Origin: a virus
Taxonomy: Duplodnaviria; Heunggongvirae; Uroviricota; Caudoviricetes
IMG/VR virus record: IMGVR_UViG_2609459803_000002
Span: 1 to 12,160 of that record
Strand: one strand, 5' to 3'
DNA: 12,160 nt
Shown in pieces: positions 1 to 12,160 of this stretch. The notes under the pieces were generated by a model. The model did not search any database and was not told the origin of the DNA. It was given only the letters and a program-made list of their open reading frames with translations. Made by a program: the position numbers and the translations under genes. Positions within the stretch are counted from its first letter, which is position 1. Every line of letters starts with the position of its first letter.

Positions 1-123
1 TGCAAATTCATTATAAACATCATCACTGACAGCCAGAGCATCATCTGGCCATGAATTTGCATTAATGTAATCATCCTTAAGTGCAGGATTCACAAAAATG
101 TTTAAAGATGGACTATAAAACAT
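1..123 (-). CDS. Tail fiber assembly protein (Tfa-like chaperone), N-terminal 41 codons only; gene runs off the window start
   Basis: ATG at 123..121 sits one nt after the tail fiber stop. Own translation MFYSPSLNIFVNPALKDDYINANSWPDDALAVSDDVYNEFA carries the WP.DA..VS..Y.EF N-terminal signature recalled for enterobacterial tail fiber assembly proteins. Absent from the ORF track because it is partial. Confidence 0.5.
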   Translation of the reverse strand, partial: MFYSPSLNIFVNPALKDDYINANSWPDDALAVSDDVYNEFA

Positions 124-124
124 A

Positions 125-763
125 TTACACCCCTATAGCGATATAACGACCTAATACAGCGTTTGCAGCAGTCGCTATGCTTGAAAAACCGCGGAACTGA
201 TTTGATGTAATTGCAGAAGCCGACAGGATTCCTGCGCCTGAAGGTGTATGCCCCACATGACTAACTATCATTCCATAACATGCTGACGGAAAGGCAAAAG
301 GAAAATCGTTAAGATATCCGGCATCTTCACCACCAGACCCACCAAATCTCGCCTGCCCCCACTGAATAATCAGTGTTCTCCGGGAACCTGAAATAATTAA
401 CGGGATCGTTACATACCCATTCAGGCCAATGACACCAGATGCAGTGCCAGCCAGAGATAATTCTCCCAAACCAAGGTTTTCGAGAGCCGTTTTCACGGTG
501 CCATCCGATTTGATATCGCCAAACGGATTCTTGCGGCTTAACAGCAGCGCACGAAGCGCGGTAAGCAGCTGGTCGTGTTGCGCCTTCTCCAGACTAGCAC
601 CGGATGCCTCCACCACGCTGCAAAGCTCCTCCTGCAACATGTCAAAGTAGTCATCATCCAGATCGGTAGCAGGCGTGCCAGTCTGGGGGTTACCACGGGT
701 AAAACCGTTTTTACCCGCGCCGAACTTATCCTTCTGCGCGGTTTTCGTGTCTATACGATGCAT
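125..763 (-). CDS. Phage tail fiber protein, short (212 aa)
   Basis: ORF-track protein ([22 protein letters not shown]...) with Gly/Ser-rich C-terminal half, GGAG ribosome-binding site 6 nt upstream of the ATG, and a tightly coupled tfa-like gene immediately downstream. Family assignment is by context and recall, not by search. Confidence 0.55.
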
Positions 764-1574
764 GGATTACTCCGGATACCGAACCGTTGAGCATCTCGAT
801 AACTTCCCGCCGCTTGTCGTAGCACGGCCCCTCAATGTTGTACCCGGCGGTGGTGATGGCCCACATCAGTGGCTGACGTCGCGCGCCCATCCCGGTAAGC
901 ATCGTGGTATAAAGCGCATCGGTGGCGTGCTCGTGATATTCATCCACCACGGCACAGTGGGGTGATGAACCATCACCGGGGTTACCGATCAGCGGTTCAA
1001 ACCGCGCGCCATCCTCCGGACGGTTCATGTTTGAGGCGTTAACCTCAATCCCGAACGCTTCCGTCAGCATGGGTGTGCGTTTACACATCAGTCGCGCCGG
1101 GCGAAAGACTTCCCACGCCTGTTTCTCTGTCGTGGCACCGGAATACACTTCCGCGCCAAACTCGTTATCACAGGCAAAACAATACAGGGCAACACCGGCA
1201 GAGATTGCCGATTTGCCGTTCTTACGGGGGATTTCGGTATACACCTCCCTGAAGCGGCGCAGCCGGGAGCCTTTATTGACCCAGCCAAACGCACAGCAGA
1301 TCACAAAGAGCTGCCACGGTTCCAGCGTGATGGGCATCCTCTTGAATGCCCACTCCCCCTTGGTGTGTGGCAACAGCTGAATAAATTTCGCGGCCCGTTC
1401 AGCCAGGTCCTTGTCGAAGCGGTAACGAAACGACTTACTTTTTTCCGCCATCAGGTCATCAAGATGGCGCTGGCAGGCCTGAATCACAAACTGGCAGGCC
1501 ACAATCTTTCCGCGCACGACATCACGGGCATACTGATTGGCAGCATTTACGTTGGGGTAAGATTTCCGGCTCAT
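726..1574 (-). pseudogene. Large terminase subunit, N-terminal ATPase domain only (3'-truncated remnant of a roughly 550-aa HK97-type protein)
   Basis: Walker A-like IPRKNGKS and Walker B-like CAVVDEYHE motifs are present. The ORF stops at 282 aa, shortly after the ITTAG motif, with no nuclease domain in any frame; the next gene is the tail fiber. Start overlaps the TerS stop, as is typical. Confidence 0.75.
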
Positions 1575-2065
1575 GATTCGATGATTTTCAGAAACGGGTT
1601 AGTGGCTTTCTTCTGCCCCGCCAGGCCAATCAGACGCTGGCGGCTGCTGGGGTCGAGTCCGAGCATTGCCCCCGTGCTGCTCATCTCGGACTCCTGTTCT
1701 TTCTTGGCGGTCAGCTCCGGATTTTTGACCATGCCACCCATTGCACCGGTGATGGTGTTGCCCTGTCTGGCAATATTTTTCACGGCACGCCGCCAGAACT
1801 CGTAGGCCACGCACCACCGCTCAAGCACCGCGAGGTCAGTCACGCACAGCAGGCCCTGACCGCAGAGTTCTTTGGTTGTCAGTTGCCACATGATCGTGGC
1901 GAGAGGGAGATCTTCTTCAGCGAACCACTCCGGTGGCTCAACACCTTTGATGGGCGTAAAAACAGGTTCATCTTTATTCAGGGCTCGCTTGCCGGGGTTT
2001 CCGGCCAGCGCCTTGCGCGCCGTTGGCTTGGGGCGACGCCCGGACCCCCCCGCCGTTCCAGCCAT
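1571..2065 (-). CDS. Small terminase subunit, P27 family
   Basis: N-terminus [30 protein letters not shown] matches the recalled P27-family signature. Start chosen at ATG 2065..2063 (AGGAG 8 nt upstream) rather than the GTG at 2074 used by the ORF track. Confidence 0.8.
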
Positions 2066-2104
2066 ATGCGGCACTCCTGGTTAAATTTCATTTTTCGCGG
2101 GTAT

Positions 2105-2164
2105 AAAAAAACGATGGGGCGGGCAGTCCGGAAGACGTCAGGTCACAGGGATGTGACCCGCCCC
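2105..2164 (-). other. GC-rich nested inverted repeat between HNH and TerS: candidate cos/packaging site or intrinsic terminator
   Basis: GGGGCGGG (2116-2123) pairs with CCCGCCCC (2157-2164) and encloses the hairpin GTCACA-ggga-TGTGAC (2142-2157). A run of 7 A (2105-2111) gives a U-tract on the minus strand after the structure. Confidence 0.3.
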
Positions 2165-2190
2165 TCCCCTCAGACAGTTGAGAGTTATTA

Positions 2191-2541
2191 TCACTTTAAC
2201 CGTTCACGGACCGTCTTCGCCTTATGACACGGCCAACACAGACTCTGCAGATTACAGTCGGCATCAGTGCCGCCATGCGCTTTAGGGATGATGTGGTCAA
2301 CGGTTTTCGCCTCACGCACCACACCGGCACGCAGACATAACTGACATAAACCTTTGTCACGCTTCAGCACACGCGCGCGGATAGCGTCCCACTTCGAACC
2401 ATAACCGCGCTGATGACGGGACTGACCTGGCTTGTATTGCTTCCAGCCTTCGCTTTTGTGGCTTTCGCAGTAGCCTGACGGGTCTGTGGTTGTAGAGCGG
2501 CAGCCGCGAACACGGCAGGCTTTTGGGGTTCGTGGTGGCAT
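2191..2541 (-). CDS. HNH endonuclease (phage packaging-associated)
   Basis: Cys/His pattern CQLC...VDHIIP...GG...NLQSLCWPCH typical of HNH; GGAG ribosome-binding site 7 nt upstream of ATG 2541; located directly upstream of TerS as in HK97-like phages. Confidence 0.85.
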   Translation of the reverse strand: MPPRTPKACRVRGCRSTTTDPSGYCESHKSEGWKQYKPGQSRHQRGYGSKWDAIRARVLKRDKGLCQLCLRAGVVREAKTVDHIIPKAHGGTDADCNLQSLCWPCHKAKTVRERLK

Positions 2542-2559
2542 TGGTAAGCTCCAATAAAA

Positions 2560-2585
2560 AAGCCACCATCGATTGCTAGTGGCTT
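2560..2585 (-). terminator. Terminator-like hairpin downstream of the orphan gene
   Basis: AAGCCAC (2560-2566) pairs with GTGGCTT (2579-2585) around a 12-nt loop; on the minus strand the stem is followed by a U-run. The stem is short, so strength is uncertain. Confidence 0.3.
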
Positions 2586-2611
2586 AGCATCTACTAATGT
2601 GAAGAGTAGGT

Positions 2612-3370
2612 TTATTTTTTCTTCTTATTTAACTTATCTAAATTGACGGGATCTTTCCCTGTGGCAGCTAAACACCAAAAAGAATAACTCTTTTGCATGA
2701 CATAGGTTCTAATTCTCTCTAATGTTTCATTATATTTTTTCTCAACAACCTGTATCGCATGTTCAAATAAATTAATCATATCAACATGCTCGTCCTCGAC
2801 ACCAATCATGCTCAGTTGTTTTCTATCTGTCACTGCTTGATAAAATGTTTTCCCATTTTTCCTTATTAGTAACAATGAAGTTTCTGCTGACTCATAGTCT
2901 TGGTTGCCGCTATGTGCTGCAAAATTATGCCTGTAGTTAATAATACAGTCATGCAACCCAAAATATTCAGAATCAAGCCAATCACGCTCCATCTTTAACT
3001 TTCTCCCTTTAGCTTCAGAGAAAGCTTTACCATAAAACGTTAGGCTTGCCACAAATAACGCTCTAATTTCACTTGATAAATCTAGATCAAGTATATTCCC
3101 GTATAACTTGCCATCTGTCCTTAATTCGTTTCTCCCTGCCAGTTCATTAGCTATTTGGTACCACTCTTTAGCACTTTTTAAGTCCCTATGAATTAGTGAC
3201 AGTGAAGATGCTCTATCGGCAATACGCCCACTCAATTTTATGCGATCTACAATTTCATTATTGAATGTATAAACCGCTTTAAATTCCCCCGTTTCGGAAT
3301 CAATATAATATTCAACATCTAACCCTTCATATGATTCACACCCGGGACCTTCTAATTTTTTTCTTTTCAT
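2612..3370 (-). CDS. Hypothetical cytoplasmic protein (252 aa), AT-rich cargo gene with an Rx5H motif (possible HEPN-like abortive-infection or toxin protein)
   Basis: Long clean ORF in a visibly AT-richer stretch. Start taken at ATG 3370..3368 (M9 of the ORF-track protein, whose first codon is TTG). Motif YRHNFAAH lies within an otherwise unassignable sequence; no signal peptide or membrane segment is evident. Confidence 0.6.
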   Translation of the reverse strand: MKRKKLEGPGCESYEGLDVEYYIDSETGEFKAVYTFNNEIVDRIKLSGRIADRASSLSLIHRDLKSAKEWYQIANELAGRNELRTDGKLYGNILDLDLSSEIRALFVASLTFYGKAFSEAKGRKLKMERDWLDSEYFGLHDCIINYRHNFAAHSGNQDYESAETSLLLIRKNGKTFYQAVTDRKQLSMIGVEDEHVDMINLFEHAIQVVEKKYNETLERIRTYVMQKSYSFWCLAATGKDPVNLDKLNKKKK

Positions 3371-3451
3371 ATAGAATATCCATATACGTTTCAATTCTCA
3401 GTCAGCATAGTAGAAAAAAAAGATGTCCAGATCCATACATCGAAAGCAATT

Positions 3452-3916
3452 TTAGTTTTCACACTGACTAGAGATATAGTCCTGCAATGCTCTTATCTGT
3501 TTATAACTGATTTCAATTCTCTCTCTGAGGGTGAAATAATCCCGTTGAGCGGTGTCAGTAAGTCGGGGGGCGGTAGCATCATCCAGGCTGGTGGTAATGG
3601 TCGTTGATTGCACTCTCGGGCAACTAGCGGCGAGGAACAGCCGCTTAGTGCCAACAGCAACATCACGCTGAAGCTGTTCAATAGTTGCTTTAGCATTTGC
3701 AAGTTCTCCGGTGTATTTCGCATCGAGCGCAGAAACATCACGCTGGCGCTGCTGCATCTCAGTAATGGTGGCGTTCGCCTGGCTGAGTTTTTCCTTCGCT
3801 TTATCGCGCTGTTCTTTGTAGGCGATGGCGTTATCACGATAATGATTAACAGCCCATGATAGGCAGACGATGGTGCAGATAACCAGAGAGGACAGAATCG
3901 CAGTTACTCTACTCAT
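3452..3916 (-). CDS. Rz: Rz inner-membrane spanin
   Basis: From the internal start [31 protein letters not shown] the protein closely matches recalled lambda Rz (N-terminal membrane segment, coiled-coil body). ATG at 3916..3914 overlaps the endolysin stop. Confidence 0.85.
3493..3696 (-). CDS. Rz1: Rz1 outer-membrane lipoprotein spanin, embedded in the +1 frame of Rz
   Basis: Internal start gives [22 protein letters not shown]... with lipobox LSGC, then the proline-rich [27 protein letters not shown], closely matching recalled lambda Rz1. Confidence 0.75.
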
Positions 3917-4391
3917 ATAGCTGAATTTCTCTGACCGTTCCGCCCGATTCTTTGAATTTTTCAATCAGGCTGTCAACCTTATGTTCGAACTGACCATAAC
4001 CAGCGCCCGGCAATGACGCCCAGATATTGCTGCAACGATCAATAGCCTGACGGATATCGCCGCGATCAATCATCGGTAAAGCACCACGCTCTTTAATCTG
4101 CTGCAATGCCACAGCATCCTGGCTTTTTGGAGAGAAGTCTTTCAGCCCAAGCTGCTTACGGTAAGCATCCCACCAGCGTGAAAGAAGCTGATAACGTCCT
4201 GCGGCTGTTGATTTAAGTTTCGGGTTTAGCGTGACAAGTTTGCGAGGGTGATCGGAGTAATCAGTGAACAGTTCACCTCCGACAATAACGTCATAACCGT
4301 GGTTACGTGTCGGTTGTCGCCCGTTATCCGTTCCTTCTGACCATGCCACCATATCGAGGAAAGCTTTACGCTGGGAATTTAGTACCTGCAT
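3909..4391 (-). CDS. R: Endolysin, lambda R-type lytic transglycosylase
   Basis: [61 protein letters not shown]... is near-identical over most of its length to recalled lambda R. Confidence 0.9.
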
Positions 4392-4394
4392 AAA

Positions 4395-4721
4395 TTACTC
4401 CTTAGAGCCACCAAACTTATTACCGATTACTCTCATTGCAGCCCCACGAATAGCATCGACCCCGATCAGCCCAACGCCGCCACCAATGGCAACAGAAAGA
4501 GATTTAGGCCATCCGACATACTCAAGAGCGGATGCAAAAGTCAGCGTCAGAGCACCACAGAGCAAAATCTCGAGCGTTTTTCGTTTCCAGCCACCACCAC
4601 CGCCAAAATAGGCAATGCGCAAGCCAGCCATAACGATCGACATAATCACTGCGCCCAGCGGTGTGTCTCCACGCCACCAGCTCTGGACCAACTCCAGCCA
4701 GGTATTTGGGTTATGAGGCAT
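4395..4721 (-). CDS. Holin, lambda S-like (three-membrane-segment class I)
   Basis: Sits immediately upstream of the endolysin. Hydrophobic segments and motifs (MAGLRIAYFGGGG; GVDAIRGAAMRVIGNKFGG) line up with lambda S features (MAYLRGRYNGG; GTDSIGSLIKRFAAKKAG). Exact start not resolved. Confidence 0.7.
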   Translation of the reverse strand: MPHNPNTWLELVQSWWRGDTPLGAVIMSIVMAGLRIAYFGGGGGWKRKTLEILLCGALTLTFASALEYVGWPKSLSVAIGGGVGLIGVDAIRGAAMRVIGNKFGGSKE

Positions 4722-4963
4722 TTGTAGTTATCTCTCACCTCGCCGATACAGGAGGTGCAAATTGAGGGAGTACCACGAACCGCAAACCAGAAGCGGAAAC
4801 GTAAAAGAAGCCGAGCCAATGGATAAGTGCTAGATAGACCAAGCCCAACGAATACCAAGGCCCAGAAATGACAAAACCCGCTCGACGGCAGGTTTAAGCT
4901 GTGTGGCGAAGTAACCACTCTTAACAGATTACACGATAAAATGCGGACCGCGTGAGGAAAACT

Positions 4964-5056
4964 ATGGTTTTTTTGAAGCGAATGAGTAAAATCAACGCCA
5001 CTTTGCACATAAGTTATCCACACTGTACGTTTGCAAAATCTCATTGCTCTCTTTGA
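4964..5056 (+). CDS. Small ORF (30 aa, MVFLKRMSKINATLHISYPHCTFAKSHCSL) upstream of the peptidase gene; candidate leader peptide or small protein
   Basis: GAGGA ribosome-binding site 5 nt upstream of ATG 4964; below the ORF-track size cut-off. No family signature. Confidence 0.2.
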   Translation: MVFLKRMSKINATLHISYPHCTFAKSHCSL

Positions 5057-5175
5057 GTTTTGTAAATGCGCTAATTTTTGGACTTTTTTTGCCGATAGAA
5101 TCTAACCACTTGTGTGGTAAGTTCTGAATGAATGTTACCTCTTGGTTTGAAAATTCTTAACATAAGGACATCTGA

Positions 5176-6171
5176 ATGTTTGAGCAGCGTAAAGCCCTGT
5201 ATGCGCAACTGGAACAAGCACGCAATTCAAAAGTATTATGCTATGTAACAGGTGATAGACCAAACCAAGAAGCTCAAATCAGCGCTGATGTATTCGATCT
5301 GTTCGTCAATCATCTTGATGTGATAGGTGATGTTCAAAAAATTAGCCTCGTGCTCTATACGCGAGGCGGCGACACTTTAACAGCATGGAGCCTTGTAAAC
5401 CTGCTTCGTCAGTTTTGTAAAGAACTCGAAATCATAATCCCATCAAAATGCCATAGTTCTGGGACGATAATGTGCCTTGGCGCGAACAACTTGGTTATGA
5501 CCAAGCAGGCAACCTTAGGGCCAATCGATCCAAGTGTGAATACACCACTTAACCCTTCGGCCATAATCAATGGGCAGCCACTTCAACTTCCAGTCAGTGT
5601 TGAAGAAATCAATGGCTATCTTGAAGTAGTTAAGCATGATTTGAGTATCAAAGATGATGCCTCACTTGCACAGATCCTCCTTGCATTAAGTGAAAAGGTT
5701 CATCCCTTGGTACTTGGAAAAGTCTATCGAGCTAAAGCGCAGATTCAAATGCTCGCAAGAAAACTACTGTCTCACCAACTCACTGATAGTGAAAGCATTG
5801 AGAAAATTGTAAGTTTCCTTTGTAGTGATTCTGGTAGCCATGACTACACTATAAATAGGATTGAAGCGGTAAACGATTTAGGTCTTACGGTGGAAAAACC
5901 AGATGAGCACCTTTACGGTCTGATCAAAGAAATTTATGAAGATTTCAAAACTGAGATGCATCTGGGTGAACCTTTTGACCCAAATGCTATCTTAGGAACA
6001 GTTAACCAGGCATCGTACGTATCTGTCAGAAGCATTTTAGAGGCTCCAGACACGTTTTCATATCAATTCCGCACTGAGGGGATGTTACAGCGTTTTCAAG
6101 TTCCAGGCGTCCCAGGTCAGTTCGGCATAAATCATAACCTTATCTCAGAGGGGTGGGCTCGACATGGATAA
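5176..6171 (+). CDS. ClpP/crotonase-fold serine peptidase (SppA / S49 / SDH-proteinase-like), cargo gene
   Basis: AAGGA ribosome-binding site 7 nt upstream of ATG 5176. Segment LVLYTRGGDTLTAWSLVNLL ... IIIPSKCHSSGTIMCLGANNLVMTKQATLGPIDP matches the GG ... (A/S)SxGT ... TLG.I core of ClpP/SppA-fold peptidases. Opposite strand to and AT-richer than the flanking phage genes. Confidence 0.7.
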   Translation: MFEQRKALYAQLEQARNSKVLCYVTGDRPNQEAQISADVFDLFVNHLDVIGDVQKISLVLYTRGGDTLTAWSLVNLLRQFCKELEIIIPSKCHSSGTIMCLGANNLVMTKQATLGPIDPSVNTPLNPSAIINGQPLQLPVSVEEINGYLEVVKHDLSIKDDASLAQILLALSEKVHPLVLGKVYRAKAQIQMLARKLLSHQLTDSESIEKIVSFLCSDSGSHDYTINRIEAVNDLGLTVEKPDEHLYGLIKEIYEDFKTEMHLGEPFDPNAILGTVNQASYVSVRSILEAPDTFSYQFRTEGMLQRFQVPGVPGQFGINHNLISEGWARHG

Positions 6172-6343
6172 CAAATCATCTACAGGTAACTTTGTAGTCT
6201 ATACTAACAGGCATACAACTACAGCTGCGCCTAAGCCAGCAAGCATTCCATCCACTGCTCAAAAAACAAGCAACAATGGCGTCAATGGCTACAGTAACTT
6301 TTTAAGTTGCACCACAGGTTCAGTCATAAAAAACAGTTTCTAA
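6164..6343 (+). CDS. Small S/T/N-rich ORF (59 aa), translationally coupled to the peptidase gene
   Basis: ATG 6164 overlaps the peptidase stop in an ATGGATAA arrangement, with GGTGGG upstream. Own translation MDNKSSTGNFVVYTNRHTTTAAPKPASIPSTAQKTSNNGVNGYSNFLSCTTGSVIKNSF; stop at 6341-6343 lies directly before the terminator hairpin. Could be spurious given its low complexity. Confidence 0.3.
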   Translation: MDNKSSTGNFVVYTNRHTTTAAPKPASIPSTAQKTSNNGVNGYSNFLSCTTGSVIKNSF

Positions 6344-6344
6344 A

Positions 6345-6371
6345 AACAACGGCTCTCTAAGAGCCGTTGTT
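6345..6371. terminator. Bidirectional intrinsic terminator hairpin between the convergent Q and peptidase operons
   Basis: Perfect stem ACAACGGCTC (6346-6355) / GAGCCGTTGT (6361-6370), extendable by one A-T pair, with loop TCTAA. Followed by a U-run on the minus strand and a weaker U-rich tract on the plus strand. Confidence 0.5.
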
Positions 6372-6375
6372 GTAT

Positions 6376-6738
6376 CTATTCACATTCTAAACGTATATCG
6401 AGCATACTAAGGCAACCATCGATAAATCCCTCAGCCATCTGTATCTCAATGCGTATTAGTTTCTCATCCTTTTTACTAGCCTTGGCGAGCTTTCTTTTAG
6501 AGATACCGTATAGGTAATGGGCAACAAGAAGCGAATGTTCGTCCGGCCTTTTTTGCTTTAGACGAGCAAGACAACCTTCAATAATTAATGCATCACTATC
6601 TGAACAAGCCTGACGTGTTTTACTTGTATAGGGAAGAAGCCCTTTAAACCCAGCAGCTATAGGCGAATAATCTACTCCAGAACTATCACTCGCCGCCCAT
6701 GCTCCCCAACGCTCCAGAACCATCTGAATATCACGCAT
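6376..6738 (-). CDS. Late-gene antiterminator Q (phage 82 / QuuD-like family)
   Basis: N-terminus MRDIQMVLERWGAWAA and C-terminus GFIDGCLSMLDIRLE match the recalled QuuD-type signature. Start taken at ATG 6738 (GGAG 7 nt upstream) rather than the TTG at 6753. Position between the nin-like genes and the lysis cassette fits. Confidence 0.8.
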   Translation of the reverse strand: MRDIQMVLERWGAWAASDSSGVDYSPIAAGFKGLLPYTSKTRQACSDSDALIIEGCLARLKQKRPDEHSLLVAHYLYGISKRKLAKASKKDEKLIRIEIQMAEGFIDGCLSMLDIRLECE

Positions 6739-6755
6739 CAACTTTCTCCACAAAA

Positions 6756-7751
6756 TCAGGCCAGCACACCAATCGCCAGCGCACGATCGATAAAACGAAA
6801 TATCAGCTCCAGCTGGGAGCCATACTTCTCTTCAAATGCCACGGTATCCGCATGCAGCTCGTCGTGATGCTTTCTGCACAAAGGCAACACAAAAAGGTCA
6901 TGCGCTTTTGTACCCATTCCACCCTGACCGTGGCCTATCAGGTGGTGGGGATCATCAGCGGGCTTTCCACAACATGCACACGGCTGCGTCTTAACCCAGC
7001 GCGTGTACTTTTCATTAACCCAGCGGCGACGTTTTGGGCGTAACATAAAAGACTCCGGCGACTCCGGCTCCACTTTCAGCGCCAGCACCTTTTTCGCTTT
7101 ATCCTGGATGATGCTGGTGGCAGGAACCGAAGGAACAAGATCACTTTCCCGGGTGACAGACGGCACAACAGGCTTCGGTAATCTCAGTGCCTTACGGGCT
7201 GCACTTTCCGGTAAGGCATCCGCCAGGTCATTACGAACCAGCCACCAGCACAGTTCCGGCATTGTCACAACGTGACTGTCATCAAAACCGAGATCCCGAC
7301 GCACGACAGACAACACCCAGCTGGCACAGTTATCCGTTGCCATTGATTCCAGCCGTTCCGTGAACTGATCGCGCAGCTGGTTATCGCAGTGCCAGCACAG
7401 ACGGATTGCGCCCGGAGCGTGTCGCATTGTGGTCATGTTCTCGCTGTGCCAGTCGGAATGAGGCCACTGGCAGCCTTTTTCACGAAGTAACCAGCTTTCA
7501 AGACATTCCACGCCACCAGCACGACGGATCACCGCCTCATTGCGGAACACAGCCCGAACGGCAGGATCATCCGCCAGTGGTTGTAATGCCGCCGGAACGG
7601 CACCACTGGAAAAAGATGAATAATGTTCCGGCTCAGGCTCCAGCAGGACACGCCCCTGCATAAACAGGGGCATCAGCTCTGAACCGGGTCTGAACAATAC
7701 GATCCCCATACGCGGGGCAATTTCAGGGGTCAGTAGCGCTCTCACGGTCAC
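6756..7751 (-). CDS. DUF968/YdfU-like prophage protein with a C-terminal HNH-like Cys/His cluster
   Basis: C-terminal CACCGKPADDPHHLIGHGQGGMGTKAHDLFVLPLCRKHHDELH; family name is from recall and unverified. GTG start abuts the KilA-N stop; exact start uncertain. Confidence 0.6.
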   Translation of the reverse strand: MTVRALLTPEIAPRMGIVLFRPGSELMPLFMQGRVLLEPEPEHYSSFSSGAVPAALQPLADDPAVRAVFRNEAVIRRAGGVECLESWLLREKGCQWPHSDWHSENMTTMRHAPGAIRLCWHCDNQLRDQFTERLESMATDNCASWVLSVVRRDLGFDDSHVVTMPELCWWLVRNDLADALPESAARKALRLPKPVVPSVTRESDLVPSVPATSIIQDKAKKVLALKVEPESPESFMLRPKRRRWVNEKYTRWVKTQPCACCGKPADDPHHLIGHGQGGMGTKAHDLFVLPLCRKHHDELHADTVAFEEKYGSQLELIFRFIDRALAIGVLA

Positions 7752-7752
7752 C

Positions 7753-8556
7753 TCAATGAACGGTATCGAGCAGCTTTAACAGCTCAGGGAATCGGGATTC
7801 GAAGAAATGCGGCTGCGTCTCACGCGGATTTGCAGGACTGGTGATGTTCTTGCCGAACATGCAGCCTTTCGCCGTCAGCGACCAGAATTTTTTAATGTTG
7901 TTAATTGCGGTACGGCTGTATCGTTCGCGTTGTTCAACGATCCCCAGCTTCGCCATCTGGTGATATGCCTGATTAGCCGTCAGGCGGATACCATACTGCT
8001 TCAGCAGTGCACTCAGCGCCAGCGTCGGGCGGCTTGAGCCATCAGGCGCGTCAGCAGGAGCATCAATGGCATAGCGCGGTGCCAGATTCGGTAAGCCAAC
8101 AGCCTCCTGGAGTTTCTGACAGGCACCAAGCACAGATGAGTTAGACAGGTTTAACTCCCGACGCATAAAGTCCAGCAGAATCACACCAGCCTGCATCTTG
8201 TCAGCAGCCTGCCCGGATAATTTTTCCGGTGCGCTGGTTACCATATCGAAAGTACGGATCACCTTCAGATGGAATGACGGGCTGATCCACATTGCATAGG
8301 CATACACCAGTTCTTTGCAGACATACGTCCCCTGGTTATTTCCGCCACGAATAACGTTAACTGGCTCTATATTGACATTGACCGAGTTGCAAATCTGCAA
8401 CTCGCTTATTAAACGTTCAGTTTGCTCATTGCGGAGCCAGAATGCAGGCTTATGCTTATCCAGAGAACCGGCAGCCCTGTGCAGATCGTTCAGGCTGTAA
8501 CGACCATAAGCATCACGACGAACTTCAATACCATCAATGACCATCAGATTATTCAT
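7753..8556 (-). CDS. KilA-N domain protein (antirepressor-like)
   Basis: N-terminal MNNLMVIDGIEVRRDAYGRYSLNDLHRAAG...KHKPAFWLRNEQTERLISEL resembles the KilA-N DNA-binding domain. Start at ATG 8556 with GAGGAG 9 nt upstream (the ORF track starts at an upstream GTG). Confidence 0.7.
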   Translation of the reverse strand: MNNLMVIDGIEVRRDAYGRYSLNDLHRAAGSLDKHKPAFWLRNEQTERLISELQICNSVNVNIEPVNVIRGGNNQGTYVCKELVYAYAMWISPSFHLKVIRTFDMVTSAPEKLSGQAADKMQAGVILLDFMRRELNLSNSSVLGACQKLQEAVGLPNLAPRYAIDAPADAPDGSSRPTLALSALLKQYGIRLTANQAYHQMAKLGIVEQRERYSRTAINNIKKFWSLTAKGCMFGKNITSPANPRETQPHFFESRFPELLKLLDTVH

Positions 8557-8575
8557 ACTTCGTTTCTCCTCTTGA

Positions 8576-8875
8576 TCAGGCGGCTGCACCCGCCGTTTTC
8601 TCGTACTTACTGATAGTGATCTCGACCTTCCCTTCCGGGATAACCGGTCCCCACTCCACCAGCATTCTTTTCACCTGACTGTCGTCTTCCCACACACCCG
8701 CGTGGGTCAGGGCGTCAAACAGCGCCTTGTTATAGTTGTCCAGATCGCGGATCCGGTTACAGGAAGCGCAATCAGTTGCGAGCGACGGTAGTGTGTTGTT
8801 AAACTGTTCATGCGTTAGTTTCTCCACAGTCACGACACGCCACGGCGCCCGGAGCTGCACACTCGCGGGCGTCAT
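8576..8875 (-). CDS. rusA: RusA-like Holliday junction resolvase
   Basis: RIRDLDNYNKALFDALTHAGVWEDDSQV matches the RusA catalytic-aspartate region (RRDLDN...FDAL...DD). Start taken at the first in-frame ATG (8875); this gives a shorter N-terminus than recalled RusA and overlaps the upstream gene by 68 nt. Confidence 0.6.
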   Translation of the reverse strand: MTPASVQLRAPWRVVTVEKLTHEQFNNTLPSLATDCASCNRIRDLDNYNKALFDALTHAGVWEDDSQVKRMLVEWGPVIPEGKVEITISKYEKTAGAAA

Positions 8876-9404
8876 TACTTTCTGAAATGCAAAAGATTTT
8901 GTAGACCAGTGCTGCATGCTCCTGCAGCTTCGAAATTGAGAGATACAGCTCGTCGTTAATTGCTGTCTTCTCATGCGGTTCCACCACACCGTCTTCGATT
9001 GCCGAACGAATCTGTCTGGAATAACTGCCAATCTGTTCAATGACTTCCAGCAGGCGCTGGTTAATATCGGCGTTGTCCACATCCTCGACGTCAGGAAGAG
9101 ACACAAAGACGCCATTTGCAGACTGCGCCACAGCGTCAGCAATGAAGTGAGTTCCACCAGCACGTTGCAAAATCATTGCCCATCCCAGCGGGAAAATCTG
9201 ATCGCCATCGGCACGAAGGCGGTTAAATAATGCGTTTTCTGTTACATCCAGCCAGTCAGCTGCTTCAGCGTAACCACCCGGCAACGCTGCGATAGTTTTT
9301 CTGACAGCTTTCACGTACCACTCAGGCTGTTTTTCTACTTTCCAGTGATGCTTACCCACGGTTAGCCTCATCGTTCTGTGGTTTCTGTTAATCGATTTAT
9401 CCAT
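8808..9404 (-). CDS. CII-like regulatory protein (phage 186 CII / e14 YmfL type)
   Basis: Central segment YAEAADWLDVTENALFNRLRADGDQIFPLGWAMILQRAGG parallels the helix-turn-helix region recalled for phage 186 CII. Lies directly after cro. Start is ambiguous (ATGs at 9416, 9404, 9371); 9404 overlaps the cro stop as ATGGATAA. Confidence 0.5.
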   Translation of the reverse strand: MDKSINRNHRTMRLTVGKHHWKVEKQPEWYVKAVRKTIAALPGGYAEAADWLDVTENALFNRLRADGDQIFPLGWAMILQRAGGTHFIADAVAQSANGVFVSLPDVEDVDNADINQRLLEVIEQIGSYSRQIRSAIEDGVVEPHEKTAINDELYLSISKLQEHAALVYKIFCISESNDARECAAPGAVACRDCGETNA

Positions 9405-9597
9405 TAGATTTTTCATAAAGCTCAGGTTTAAATGGCAACCGTCCGCAAGTTCTATATGCAGCTTCTGCTGCACGTCCTTTTGGAATTAACTGGCCCGGAC
9501 GGTTTCGCCACTGATAAACGGCTTCAGTTGTTATGCCGAAAAAAGCAGCAACTTTCTCAATACTGCCGAAGTAGCTTTCGATATCGTCAGTTGTCAT
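9397..9597 (-). CDS. Cro-like small helix-turn-helix regulator
   Basis: 66 aa, divergent from the repressor across a 97-bp operator region; GGAGG ribosome-binding site; sequence VAAFFGITTEAVYQWRN is consistent with a helix-turn-helix. Confidence 0.6.
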   Translation of the reverse strand: MTTDDIESYFGSIEKVAAFFGITTEAVYQWRNRPGQLIPKGRAAEAAYRTCGRLPFKPELYEKSNG

Positions 9598-9694
9598 ACG
9601 CCCTCCAAACTAAGTTTTATTAGATGCTAATTACAAATCTATCTTTGGTCAATAAAAACTAAGATTACTTAGCAATTCAAGAAATGGTGCTCCT
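9598..9694. promoter_or_regulatory. Divergent promoter/operator region of the immunity switch
   Basis: Minus-strand promoter candidate TTGACC (9652..9647) -17 nt- TAGCAT (9629..9624) for cro. Operator-like palindromes CTAAG-ATTA-CTTAG (9659-9672) and CTAAG-TTTT-ATTAG (9610-9623) flank it. Confidence 0.5.
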
Positions 9695-10321
9695 ATGGAA
9701 ACGGTTGGTCAGCGTATAAAAGCTCTGAGAAGAGTTACCGGAACGTCCCAGAAAGAATTGGGTAAATTTTGTGGAGTAAGCGACGTTGCTGTGGGGTACT
9801 GGGAGAAAGACATCAATACCCCTGGTGGGGAGGCACTTTCGAAATTAGCGAAGTTCTTCAATACGTCAATAGATTACATTCTTTATGGTGCTGAGTTTGA
9901 AGGCAAACTCGTCACAAACATGCGCAGAGTTCCTGTAATATCGTGGGTTCAGGCTGGGCAGTTTACTGAGTGCAGGGCAGCAGAAGTGTTTAGTGAAGTG
10001 GACAAGTGGGTAGATACATCATTAAAGATTGGTGATAACTCATTTGCATTAGAGGTTAAAGGTGACTCCATGACTAACCCTAATGGCCTCCCAACAATAC
10101 CAGAAGGCGCAACAGTGATTGTAGATCCAGATGCAGAACCTCGTCATGGAAAAATAGTCATCGCTCGACTTGATGGAACAAACGAAGCTACAGTAAAAAA
10201 ATTAGTCATCGATGGCCCTCAAAAGTTTTTAGTGCCATTAAATCCTCGGTATCCCAACATCCCTATCAATGGTAATTGCCTTATCATTGGTGTAGTCAAA
10301 GGAGTTCAATACGAACTCTAA
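9695..10321 (+). CDS. cI-like prophage repressor (N-terminal helix-turn-helix plus C-terminal LexA-like S24 autopeptidase domain)
   Basis: N-terminal QKELGKFCGVSDVAVGYWE helix-turn-helix; Ala-Gly cleavage site in VQAGQF; catalytic Ser in KGDSM and Lys in TVKKL. Confidence 0.9.
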   Translation: METVGQRIKALRRVTGTSQKELGKFCGVSDVAVGYWEKDINTPGGEALSKLAKFFNTSIDYILYGAEFEGKLVTNMRRVPVISWVQAGQFTECRAAEVFSEVDKWVDTSLKIGDNSFALEVKGDSMTNPNGLPTIPEGATVIVDPDAEPRHGKIVIARLDGTNEATVKKLVIDGPQKFLVPLNPRYPNIPINGNCLIIGVVKGVQYEL

Positions 10322-10343
10322 GACCTCTCTTCTCTAACTAAGG

Positions 10344-10376
10344 CACCGAACTAAGAAAAGTTTGGTGTTTTCTCTT
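10344..10376 (+). terminator. Intrinsic terminator downstream of the repressor gene
   Basis: CACCGAACT (10344-10352) pairs with AGTTTGGTG (10359-10367), 9 bp including one G-U, loop AAGAAA, followed by TTTTCTCTT. Confidence 0.5.
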
Positions 10377-10403
10377 GCCATAATAACTAAGTTAAGTTAG
10401 ATT
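10375..10403 (+). promoter_or_regulatory. Sigma70-like promoter candidate with overlapping operator-like palindrome
   Basis: TTGCCA (10375-10380) -17 nt- TAGATT (10398-10403). CTAAG-TTAA-GTTAG (10386-10399) sits in the spacer and resembles the operator motif next to cro. Confidence 0.3.
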
Positions 10404-10527
10404 TTATATCAAAGATAACGAACAGGCAGGACGCCCACGAAGTAGCCGCCTGGGGAATATGAAGTCCAGGATGATTCGTTGAGTCATGTTGTGCCACCAG
10501 GCACTCATGTTAAAGCAGGTGTATGAA

Positions 10528-10803
10528 ATGAAAGTCCAGATTTTAAACAATAACTGTGAAGTCGTTTGGTCATACGACATAGCCGCCCCTGTAGATCAGA
10601 GCGGCGATAGCTGGACCAATGGGAAACATCAGATTATGGCTGGAGTTGTGTTCTCTTTACGCCGTGCTTTGGAACAGGCTGAAGTATTTCCATCAGACCC
10701 TGAATGGAAATGGCCTTTTTCTATTTGTCCAAATTCGGAGAGCACATTTCAGAAAATTGGTCAGAAAGTCGCACTCGAAGAGCATCAGCCAACTGTTTCC
10801 TGA
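10528..10803 (+). CDS. Hypothetical protein (91 aa), first gene outward from the repressor's far side
   Basis: Start at ATG 10528 with AGGTG 8 nt upstream (the ORF track starts at 10486). Not arginine-rich, so not an obvious N-like antiterminator. 3' end overlaps the convergent minus-strand ORF. Confidence 0.4.
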   Translation: MKVQILNNNCEVVWSYDIAAPVDQSGDSWTNGKHQIMAGVVFSLRRALEQAEVFPSDPEWKWPFSICPNSESTFQKIGQKVALEEHQPTVS

Positions 10804-10966
10804 TTTTTTCAGGTAACTCGTCGGCATCGCAGAAACAACAACGCTCGATCATGTTGAAAGCCGATTCGTAGAACTGTTTCTGCTGAGTGTCGCTGAGACA
10901 GGAAAAGAGCGACGTTACGATGATTTTATTAATTGCATTATCAAGTTCTTTTTCATCAAAAGTCAT
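10721..10966 (-). CDS. Hypothetical small protein (81 aa, Cys-containing CCFCDADE segment)
   Basis: AAGGA ribosome-binding site 8 nt upstream of ATG 10966; plausible charged, helical composition; convergent with and overlapping the 3' end of the 10528-10803 ORF by 83 nt. Confidence 0.5.
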   Translation of the reverse strand: MTFDEKELDNAINKIIVTSLFSCLSDTQQKQFYESAFNMIERCCFCDADELPEKIRKQLADALRVRLSDQFSEMCSPNLDK

Positions 10967-11220
10967 TTGATTTTCCTTTTATGTATACGGGCTTAAAAGG
11001 ATACCACCGAGCCTGAAGTGGTGAAAAGACAGGCACATAACAGCTAAGTATTTTCAACCAGAGAGAATCCTTAGCGTTGTGGTGAATGCGGCTCAGCGCA
11101 CGCGGGTTAAGGTTGAGGCTGACAGTCGACCTTCTGTAGATACCCACCCGCCTGGTGTGCAACCTTCGCCAGGCACCGGGAGGCACCCGGCACCACAACT
11201 TTATGCTGTGTGTAGTCCTG

Positions 11221-11267
11221 GCGGTACCAGTTTGTACCCTTGCTTCCGGCTGGTACCGCTCTTTTTA
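11221..11267 (+). terminator. Terminator-like hairpin inside the GC-rich noncoding island
   Basis: GCGGTACCAG (11221-11230) pairs with CTGGTACCGC (11250-11259) around a 19-nt loop, followed by TCTTTTT. Confidence 0.35.
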
Positions 11268-11403
11268 CAAAACAGAGAAGAGCATCACCGGACGACGGGC
11301 TCATAAACCAATCCATCCGGGCGGCTGCCACCGCAGGTGTTCTTCTCTGTTTTGTGGAGAAACTAATCGGCCTTGCAGGGTCGATATGATGAGGAGCAGC
11401 AAA

Positions 11404-11766
11404 ATGGCTAGCGAACGCAGTACTGATGTGCAGGCATTTATCGGGGAGCTGGACGGCGGCGTATTTGAAACCAAAATCGGCGCAGTTCTCAGTGAAGTCG
11501 CTTCCGGTGTGATGAACACGAAAACCAAAGGTAAGGTCTCACTCAACCTGGAAATCGAACCATTTGATGAGAACCGTGTGAAAATCAAACACAAACTCTC
11601 ATATGTTCGCCCGACTAACCGCGGGAAAATTTCCGAAGAAGACACCACCGAAACGCCGATGTATGTCAATCGCGGTGGTCGCCTGACTATTCTGCAGGAA
11701 GACCAGGGACAGTTACTGACTCTTGCCGGTGAACCTGACGGAAAACTCCGCGCAGCAGGTCATTAA
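11404..11766 (+). CDS. Conserved prophage protein of unknown function (120 aa; possibly YfdP-like)
   Basis: Start at ATG 11404 with GAGGAG 7 nt upstream; the ORF-track extension upstream of this is GC-rich junk-like sequence. YfdP resemblance rests on recalled size and neighbour only. Confidence 0.6.
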   Translation: MASERSTDVQAFIGELDGGVFETKIGAVLSEVASGVMNTKTKGKVSLNLEIEPFDENRVKIKHKLSYVRPTNRGKISEEDTTETPMYVNRGGRLTILQEDQGQLLTLAGEPDGKLRAAGH

Positions 11767-11831
11767 TATCGTTCTTAATTAACTGATTATTTATCTCATC
11801 ACTGAATATCTTTATATAGTGAGGACTTATT

Positions 11832-12160
11832 ATGTCTCAGAACTTAGACGCAACCGCAATTAATCAAATCCATGCCCTTATTTCTGCTCAGAGTGTTAAT
11901 GAAATTATCAGTAAGATTGGTGCCGATGCTGTGGCATTGCCTGAGAATTTCCGCATTCATGATCTGGAAAAATTTAATTTAAATCGCTTCCGTTTCCGTG
12001 GTGCGCTTTCCACTGCCAGCATCGATGACTTTACCCGTTATTCTAAAGATCTTGCAGATGAAGGCACCCGCTGCTTTATCGATGCTGATAATATGCGTGC
12101 CGTCAGTGTGCTTAACCTGGGTACTATTGATGAACCAGGTCACGCAGATAACACCGCCAC
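11832..12160 (+). CDS. Conserved prophage protein of unknown function, N-terminal part (possibly YfdQ/DUF2303-like); runs off the window end
   Basis: ATG 11832 with GAGGA 6 nt upstream. Own translation [110 protein letters not shown] has no stop within the window. Not in the ORF track because it is partial. Confidence 0.6.

Follow-up and report, generated by a model that had tools for sequence, protein, structure and literature searches.

The window analyzed here, a 12,160-nucleotide (nt) stretch comprising positions 1 to 12,160 of the IMG/VR virus record IMGVR_UViG_2609459803_000002 (Caudoviricetes), contains a two-gene unit on the plus strand between the antiterminator gene Q and the holin gene of a defective Escherichia coli prophage, opposite to the phage genes. 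The first gene (positions 5176 to 6171) encodes an SDH-type ClpP-fold serine protease of 331 amino acids (aa), and the second (6164 to 6343, also plus strand) encodes a Ser/Thr/Asn-rich protein of 59 aa, referred to below as the partner. Both open reading frames (ORFs), reverse oriented between Q and the holin gene, had been described in a first-pass annotation of the window and were recovered here at the same coordinates. The two genes recur together in several bacterial phyla and in archaea, and the comparisons presented below show them to be a unit of inheritance. The reading that we favor, with a confidence falling somewhat short of even, is that the pair is a toxin-antitoxin (TA)-like abortive-infection or exclusion module in which a protease effector would be gated by the small partner.

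The protease

The protease matches the Pfam family of ClpP-like SDH-type serine proteinases (PF01972) above the gathering threshold (53.6 bits against a cutoff of 31.3; E value, 2.3e-14), with the match confined to residues 53 to 124, which correspond to profile positions 91 to 162 of 286. It also has a full-length match to phrog_11747 (E value, 3e-92), a family without an assigned function, and is named "SDH family Clp fold serine proteinase" by the Prokaryotic Genome Annotation Pipeline (PGAP). The NCBIfam model NF047768 (Clp_like_SDH) is matched at 69 bits over profile positions 77 to 152 of 260, and because this lies below the equivalog cutoff of 250, the protease is a relative rather than an equivalog of that family. 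Across these two intervals it shares the catalytic core with the canonical SDH family (NF047768 and full-length PF01972), whereas it covers only about a quarter of either profile and belongs to a distinct subfamily, represented by phrog_11747. Residues 42 to 114 are also weakly similar to ClpP-related head maturation proteases in PHROG and NCBIfam (E values of 3e-3 to 1.5e-6).

An AlphaFold2 model built from an alignment of 48 homologs (predicted local distance difference test score, 88.7; predicted template modeling score, 0.84) contains a ClpP-like alpha/beta domain (approximately residues 1 to 140), a helical region (142 to 273), and three long C-terminal strands (278 to 330). The first of these has the alpha/beta fold of the ClpP/crotonase-fold serine peptidases (MEROPS clan SK type), whereas the approximately 150 C-terminal residues, comprising the helical bundle and the three long beta-strands, have no counterpart in ClpP, SppA, or 1510-N. 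In a profile search of PDB sequences, Ser94 (codon 5455 to 5457) aligned with the serine of the -SAGT- motif in 1510-N, the catalytic Ser97 of that enzyme, and Ser94 is the predicted nucleophile of the window protease. The ClpP/SppA fold with a nucleophilic serine that the first-pass annotation had proposed is in agreement with the profile matches, the model, and this alignment. Residues that are invariant in the 48 homologs (54 to 93% identity) include S94, K110, D118, H176, H222-D223, and the motif S219-G-S-H-D-Y-T, and D118, H176, H222, and K110 are candidate general bases. The lysine of the SppA/1510-N Ser-Lys dyad is not conserved at the aligned position in the window family, which instead retains the invariant D118, H176, and H222. 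The Ser/Asp/His order of the invariant residues presumably fits the "SDH" of the family name. Ratios of nonsynonymous to synonymous substitution rates (dN/dS), estimated by the Nei-Gojobori method as they are throughout, range from 0.02 to 0.17 for the protease, and the Escherichia coli and archaeal (methanogen) copies are about 50% identical.

The small partner protein

Nearly all loci for which sufficient downstream sequence is available have an ATG-started ORF of approximately 55 to 75 aa that begins at -14 to +25 nt from the protease stop codon, and the junction between the two genes is frequently ATGA. After dereplication of the loci at 85% protease identity, such an ORF, or a longer one fused to a Panacea domain, was found in 103 of 107 clusters, compared with a baseline of 22% when the other ORFs of 200 aa or more at the same loci are considered. 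This survey of gene neighborhoods reveals a coupling between the protease and the small ORF that is far stronger than could be seen in the first-pass annotation, with the partner conserved across phyla. The two ORFs of the window overlap by 8 nt (ATGGATAA), and the partner is tightly coupled to the protease in translation because of this overlap.

The partners are Ser/Thr rich, with conserved N-terminal and C-terminal motifs (G-N-F-V-V-Y and ...S-V-I-K-N-S-F in the window partner) placed around a variable Ser/Thr-rich center, and the consensus of a hidden Markov model (HMM) across phyla reads ...TGsnVVYlNrSTSSAAsaFsqSTAdPDSLAnIMKNstLVV.... Judged from its composition, the partner is probably disordered. 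An HMM trained only on partners whose locus protease was less than 57% identical to that of the window recovered, against 9,346 background ORFs from all loci, the held-out partners from Nitrosomonas (E value, 7e-8), Pseudomonas (2e-6), and the window (8e-4; 18.8 bits), and the first genuine background match appeared only at an E value of 0.74. This result supports homology of the partners across phyla. A phmmer search with the 59-aa partner against 1.84 billion representatives returned two real relatives, the remaining matches being of low complexity and located in long proteins; the single sequence is too short and biased a query, and only the locus-derived HMM worked.

Comparison of the window partner with a relative of 98% identity gave a dN/dS of 0.085 (15 synonymous and 6 nonsynonymous changes), and values of 0.04 to 0.3 were obtained in 15 further pairs for which dS could be estimated. 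By these estimates the partner is clearly under purifying selection, and amino acid changes accrue severalfold faster in it than in the protease. The partner ORF is absent from the PGAP annotation of the window locus, and some other pipelines name it "hypothetical protein" (BDR40475.1); it is seen on 578 contigs. The 59-aa window partner has no Pfam match and hence no Panacea domain (PF13274).

Distribution of the pair

The loci examined were fetched from one-genome-per-species contigs (80 loci), from IMG/VR viral contigs (73 loci), and by exact-protein lookup (nine loci). At identities of at least 50%, the protease is found in the Proteobacteria, Firmicutes, Bacteroidota, Spirochaetes, and Chloroflexi and in the archaea Methanothrix and Methanofastidiosum, in most of the loci examined with the small ORF after it, and the protease family comprises more than 4,000 database clusters. 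Within individual species, however, it is uncommon. In E. coli, 47 of 5,426 complete genomes carry the protease, all at 99% identity or higher, and no close homolog of the protease was found in 50,697 deposited phage genomes. Like type II TA systems, the two genes form an adjacent, co-oriented, and translationally coupled pair that is inherited as a unit.

No conserved third gene accompanies the pair: when ORFs of 70 aa or more lying within 4 kb of the protease were clustered, each neighbor family was limited to at most 8 of the 110 protease clusters. The commonest neighbors, all of them phage or mobile-element genes that differ between loci, are DNA methyltransferases, DUF968, Q, terminase, lysozyme, and integrase. 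The DNA methyltransferase genes are the most frequent of these and still occur in just 7 to 8 of the 110 clusters, across unrelated loci (for example, at 986 to 1804 and 4432 to 5154 of L116, a locus in a P2-like prophage).

Panacea-type partners and distant relatives

In about 10 loci from Firmicutes, the partner position is taken by a longer ORF of approximately 195 aa. The two of these proteins that were scanned both contain the SocA_Panacea domain PF13274 (E values of 5e-18 and 5e-23), and about eight others were assigned to the same type by sequence similarity. Panacea antitoxins are encoded in a toxin-first order in 78% of cases and pair with many unrelated toxins (PMC10440598, PMC8832971), and they often neutralize by way of a linear or disordered element that is appended to them and also exists on its own (PMC10440598). 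The long partners are suggestive of accretion of the Panacea domain onto a common neutralizing element. They also weaken the peptide-processing role that the first-pass annotation had raised as an alternative.

The pair resembles the PanA-PanT type II systems in being an overlapping bicistron with the putative toxin gene first. The resemblance extends to PF13274 in the partners of the Firmicutes clade and, for the short partners, to the concept of a short linear or disordered neutralizing element that may be present with the Panacea domain or without it (PMC10440598), whereas the 59-aa window partner, unlike PanA antitoxins, is without a Panacea domain.

More distant SDH-like proteases of other temperate elements also occur beside small ORFs. 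E. coli plasmid pSM107_MCR (L167, 2188 to 4029) has a cI gene followed by genes for a 300-aa SDH-like protease and a 56-aa protein, in the rexAB position of a lambda-like region, and in Klebsiella phage ST13-OXA48phi12.4 (L168, 2694 to 3891) a 71-aa ORF overlaps the start of a gene for a 331-aa "SppA," with an ImmA/XRE immunity pair alongside. These two proteases are 24 to 25% identical to that of the window, and their small proteins are unlike the window partner. Their presence beside small ORFs suggests that an SDH protease with a mini-protein is a general architecture with several subfamilies.

Insertion site and expression signals

Comparison with phages 1720a-02 and cdtI by blastn and local alignment delimits positions 4953 to 6375 of the window as a variable cassette. 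On its right is the stop codon of the convergent Q gene (6376 to 6753, minus strand; PF06530, E value of 2e-53, and PGAP annotation), and on its left is a conserved element (4873 to 4952, minus strand) with 91 to 96% identity to the two phages. The stretch common to the phages is 54 to 80 nt, and the element bears a terminator-like hairpin at 4895 to 4874. Beyond it lies the gene for a lambda-family holin (4395 to 4721, minus strand; PF05106). The DNA between the element and Q is wholly different among the three phages: in 1720a-02 (L165, 2554 to 2590) the slot is empty, with about 38 nt from the Q stop codon to the element, and in cdtI (AB285204.1; L166, 1581 to 3067) it holds an unrelated opposite-strand pair encoding a 313-aa DUF6731 protein and a 147-aa protein, for which PADLOC gave no match. 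By this three-way comparison, the interval between the Q stop codon and the hairpin is a recurrent insertion point. The first-pass annotation had likened the site to the cargo site of Shiga toxin phages, and this analogy is only approximate; the conserved element is probably a late promoter/tR'-type region, and the slot appears to lie upstream of it, not downstream, where the stx genes sit.

Similar positions are occupied elsewhere. Six different protease alleles adjoin a Q gene, five of them convergent with it as in the window. The pair lies directly 3' of a cI-type repressor gene, on the same strand, in Pectobacterium (L002) and Pseudomonas (L010) prophages, between gpA and the portal gene gpQ of the P2-like prophage mentioned above, and next to tail-tip/tail-fiber genes at another locus (L104); elsewhere it is found in non-phage islands. 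The gpA-gpQ interval of P2 is the old/tin anti-phage hotspot (PMC9122126), and the portion of the supplement to that paper covered here contains no SDH/ClpP entries. The sites downstream of cI, in P2, near Q, and by the tail-fiber genes are classical lysogen-expressed "moron"/defense positions, and a role in defense or exclusion would be consistent with them. The abortive-infection or exclusion role suggested in the first-pass annotation likewise fits the positions after cI, in the P2 hotspot, and in the variable Q-proximal slot, and we infer it from these contexts. A context in a phage-inducible chromosomal island (PICI) was considered for the Raoultella and Klebsiella loci and rejected, as the annotated neighbors there (resolvase and large unknown proteins) include neither an integrase nor a primase gene, which are hallmarks of PICIs.

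Several features attributed to the cassette in the first-pass annotation were found as described, namely, its own ribosome-binding sites, a terminator directly after the small ORF, and a higher AT content. The region from 4953 to 5175 (plus strand) is, on reading of the sequence, the 5' untranslated region of the cassette and presumably includes its promoter. A Shine-Dalgarno sequence, AAGGA, lies at 5164 to 5168, 7 nt ahead of the protease ATG, and a G-rich stretch (GAGGGGTGGG) is located about 10 nt ahead of the partner ATG. A terminator scan and inspection of both strands identified a hairpin at 6345 to 6371 with a 12-bp stem that includes six G-C pairs; it begins 2 nt past the partner stop codon and finishes 4 nt short of the Q stop codon. 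Of its two strands, the minus strand has the better T-run (GTTGTTTTTAG), so the hairpin is taken to be bidirectional, also closing the Q transcript, and it is probably mainly the terminator of that transcript and secondarily that of the cassette. Read-through from Q on induction would run antisense over the cassette. Comparable hairpins with T-runs are located 3' of the partner ORF at the Pectobacterium, Raoultella, and Pseudomonas loci. The GC content is 0.39 to 0.44 in the cassette versus 0.50 to 0.57 in the flanking phage genes.

Proposed function and alternative explanations

In the favored reading, the two genes of the cassette would make up a self-contained module that moves horizontally and is expressed by the prophage in the lysogenic state. 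The first gene would supply a cytoplasmic ClpP-fold protease acting as the effector, or "toxin," and the second a labile partner that binds and neutralizes the protease through a short linear motif, as a type II antitoxin does. On infection by another phage, the partner would be lost, displaced, or outcompeted, and the freed protease would cleave a host or phage protein, so that the infection is aborted or the incoming phage excluded. The steps of this proposal that the results support are the fold and the conserved catalytic-type residues of the protease, the unity of the pair, purifying selection on both genes, the slot locations, and the Panacea-type partner in one clade.

Several observations weigh against this reading. 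Effectors engaged in an arms race are not usually as highly conserved as this protease is. No convincing sigma-70 promoter for the cassette was detected upstream of the protease gene either by a consensus scan or by a looser custom scan; the sole promoter-like signal is a -10-like TAGAAT at 5096 to 5101 preceded by a T-rich tract, and without a clear promoter, expression in the lysogen is deduced from the orientation of the cassette and from analogous sites. Searches of PADLOC-DB v2.0.0 gave no match to the protease or the 59-aa partner (E value of 0.1 or lower). When the short-partner HMM was applied to 11 long downstream ORFs (10 of them Panacea type), one reached an E value of 1e-4, and because the N termini of the Panacea-fused proteins match the model so weakly, domain accretion is suggestive and not proven. 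A ClpP-fold protease is not among the PanT toxins named in the main texts and in part of the supplements of the Panacea papers (PMC8832971, PMC10440598). Finally, the protease may equally well be the antitoxin-like component, as is the case for ImmA in RosmerTA (PMC10440598).

Of the other explanations, addiction fares best, although we consider it improbable: the pair would be a TA system that prevents the loss of the prophage or mobile element by postsegregational killing, with no dedicated anti-phage function. The TA-like architecture, an overlapping bicistron with a fast-evolving partner whose dN exceeds that of the protease, suits this explanation, as do the Panacea-domain partner in one clade, the retention of the pair in a defective prophage that lacks approximately 15.5 kb of head and tail genes, and its occurrence in non-phage islands. 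The recurrence of the pair in documented or typical anti-phage hotspots (P2 gpA-gpQ, after cI, and the variable Q-proximal slot) speaks against it, TA modules at such sites having repeatedly turned out to be defense systems (PMC10440598); addiction and defense roles can also coexist.

An adaptor function, in which the small or Panacea-fused protein would recruit a substrate to the ClpP-fold protease or activate it, much as SocA delivers SocB to ClpXP, is slightly less probable than addiction. SocA, the founding member of the Panacea proteins, acts as a proteolytic adaptor (PMC8832971), the partner adjoins a Clp-fold protease, and tight translational coupling implies a fixed stoichiometry. Set against these points, Panacea antitoxins generally bind their toxins directly and do not depend on ClpXP or Lon to neutralize them (PMC8832971), most partners have just 55 to 75 aa and lack a folded domain, and the absence of a conserved third gene leaves no candidate for a delivered substrate.

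It is also possible, though unlikely, and a little more so than an adaptor, that the protease processes the Ser/Thr-rich mini-protein into an active peptide (a signal, a toxin, or a product resembling a ribosomally synthesized and posttranslationally modified peptide). The conserved terminal motifs flanking a variable center would suit a precursor encoded immediately beside its peptidase, and SppA-type enzymes hold their own C-terminal peptides in the active site (title of PDB entry 4kwb). Reading of the two protein sequences revealed no evident signal peptide or membrane segment in either, neighbor clustering revealed no conserved modification enzyme or exporter near the pair, and the gain of an antitoxin domain by the partner in some lineages also argues against processing.

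Phage housekeeping, by which the protease would be a displaced or duplicated prohead protease or a lysis/late protein and the small ORF spurious, is very improbable despite the weak similarity of the protease to head maturation proteases, given the opposite-strand cassette with its own terminator, the conservation of the protease over all 331 aa, including at loci without phage genes and in archaeal genomes, and a small ORF that is homologous across phyla and under purifying selection. The first-pass annotation had named a displaced prohead protease fragment as one finding that would overturn its view; prohead proteases are encoded between the portal and major capsid genes and co-oriented with them, as the window protease is not, and the head module of an intact relative of the window prophage (43.7 kb; L164) already includes an HK97 prohead protease, at 39326 to 39976, with the SDH gene elsewhere and on the opposite strand.

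Relation to known systems

DefenseFinder lists a system named FS_HP_SDH_sah (PMC13532340). A two-gene anti-phage pair of a hypothetical protein (HP) and an SDH protease is accordingly already catalogued, with no mechanism attached, and the window pair is not wholly undescribed, contrary to the first-pass annotation, which had found no known defense module to match it. The system is said to originate from Fillol-Salom et al. 2022 (Cell 185:3248), where it is reportedly a PICI-encoded "hypothetical protein + SDH_sah" pair with validated anti-phage activity, and SDH_sah is the former Pfam name of PF01972. By its name, FS_HP_SDH_sah combines an SDH-type protease with a small uncharacterized protein in two genes, as the window pair does, and both would reside on a temperate phage or a phage-parasitizing element, if the former is indeed PICI encoded. 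Its name suggests that the HP gene comes first, whereas the small gene of the window lies downstream of the protease gene, and the arrangement in Klebsiella phage ST13-OXA48phi12.4 may be closer to it than the window pair is. It is about evenly balanced whether the window pair is simply a member of FS_HP_SDH_sah. The HP-first name and the Klebsiella phage arrangement indicate that FS_HP_SDH_sah may instead be a sister subfamily. The fuller version of this idea is possible though doubtful: the window pair would then represent a distinct, uncharacterized, pan-prokaryotic protease-effector family of TA/defense systems that is sister to FS_HP_SDH_sah; its gene order would be reversed, and its partner, unrelated to that of FS_HP_SDH_sah, would have been swapped for, or extended by, a Panacea domain in some lineages. 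A Panacea-fused partner had no match in PADLOC-DB v2.0.0 (E value of 0.01 or lower). The Tai system, which has a "non-contiguous operon" and a PICI origin, was also considered (He 2024; PMC11364771) and is unrelated, the paper having no protease or SDH content.

A further comparison is with prophage e14. Its Lit protein, a zinc metalloprotease encoded by a single gene and activated by a phage peptide, is a prophage-borne abortive-infection effector. Both Lit and the window enzyme are peptidases carried by a cryptic lambdoid element, the window prophage being e14-like, and the window enzyme, like Lit, would kill or arrest the cell on infection. Unlike Lit, it belongs to the ClpP-fold serine proteases and has a small partner of its own. 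We know of no sequence relationship between the two.

The prophage in the window

ORF calls, Pfam matches, and PGAP annotation identify the window as a lambdoid, e14-like prophage containing ymf genes, with the phage genes on the minus strand. A cI-type repressor is encoded at 9695 to 10321 on the plus strand. Other prophage genes encode KilA-N, DUF968/HNH, GH24 lysozyme, Rz, HNH, TerS, and a truncated TerL (ORF 726 to 1574, minus strand), which abuts a tail-fiber ORF (125 to 763, minus strand). In alignment with the intact 43.7-kb phage, positions 462 to 778 match the tail-fiber (stfP) region and positions 774 to 2133 the 5' part of terL, and because these matches adjoin in the window, a deletion of about 15.5 kb of head and tail genes is inferred, which makes the window prophage defective. 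The protease cassette is still intact inside this decaying prophage.

In the assemblies of strains AH02 and CT01, the intact 43.7-kb phage (NZ_CP081704.1/NZ_CP081794.1) is found twice, once in the chromosome and once as a circular "plasmid" of its own, which points to an intact relative that excises or replicates spontaneously. Near the integrase gene of this phage are a type II restriction-modification pair and genes for a GIY-YIG protein and an acyltransferase. A second variable cargo slot in the window prophage is occupied by the ORF at 2612 to 3394 (minus strand), between the Rz/Rz1 and HNH/terminase genes. This AT-rich ORF (GC content, about 0.35) encodes 260 aa and matches phrog_8440, a family of unknown function; Pfam and PADLOC scans gave no match to it. 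In strain QDFD216 the equivalent interval has other DNA and a different hypothetical gene.

Implications

To our knowledge, few of the characterized anti-phage systems kill by means of a protease, and no mechanism has been described for one of the SDH/ClpP-fold type. The family described here is compact (about 1.2 kb) and exceptionally conserved, and the short conserved motifs of its partner are direct handles for mutagenesis. Because PGAP omits the small gene, the RefSeq records examined show the module as a single "serine proteinase" gene. Searches for prophage cargo could be extended to the Q-proximal slot, in which other opposite-strand cassettes also occur. If the proposed function is correct, the Panacea antitoxin network would be linked to protease toxins, and on the sister-family reading a ClpP-fold protease would be added to the named toxin partners of Panacea. 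Should the partner prove to be a linear pseudosubstrate inhibitor that disappears when a phage infects, the pair would offer a minimal model of licensed proteolysis in bacterial immunity.

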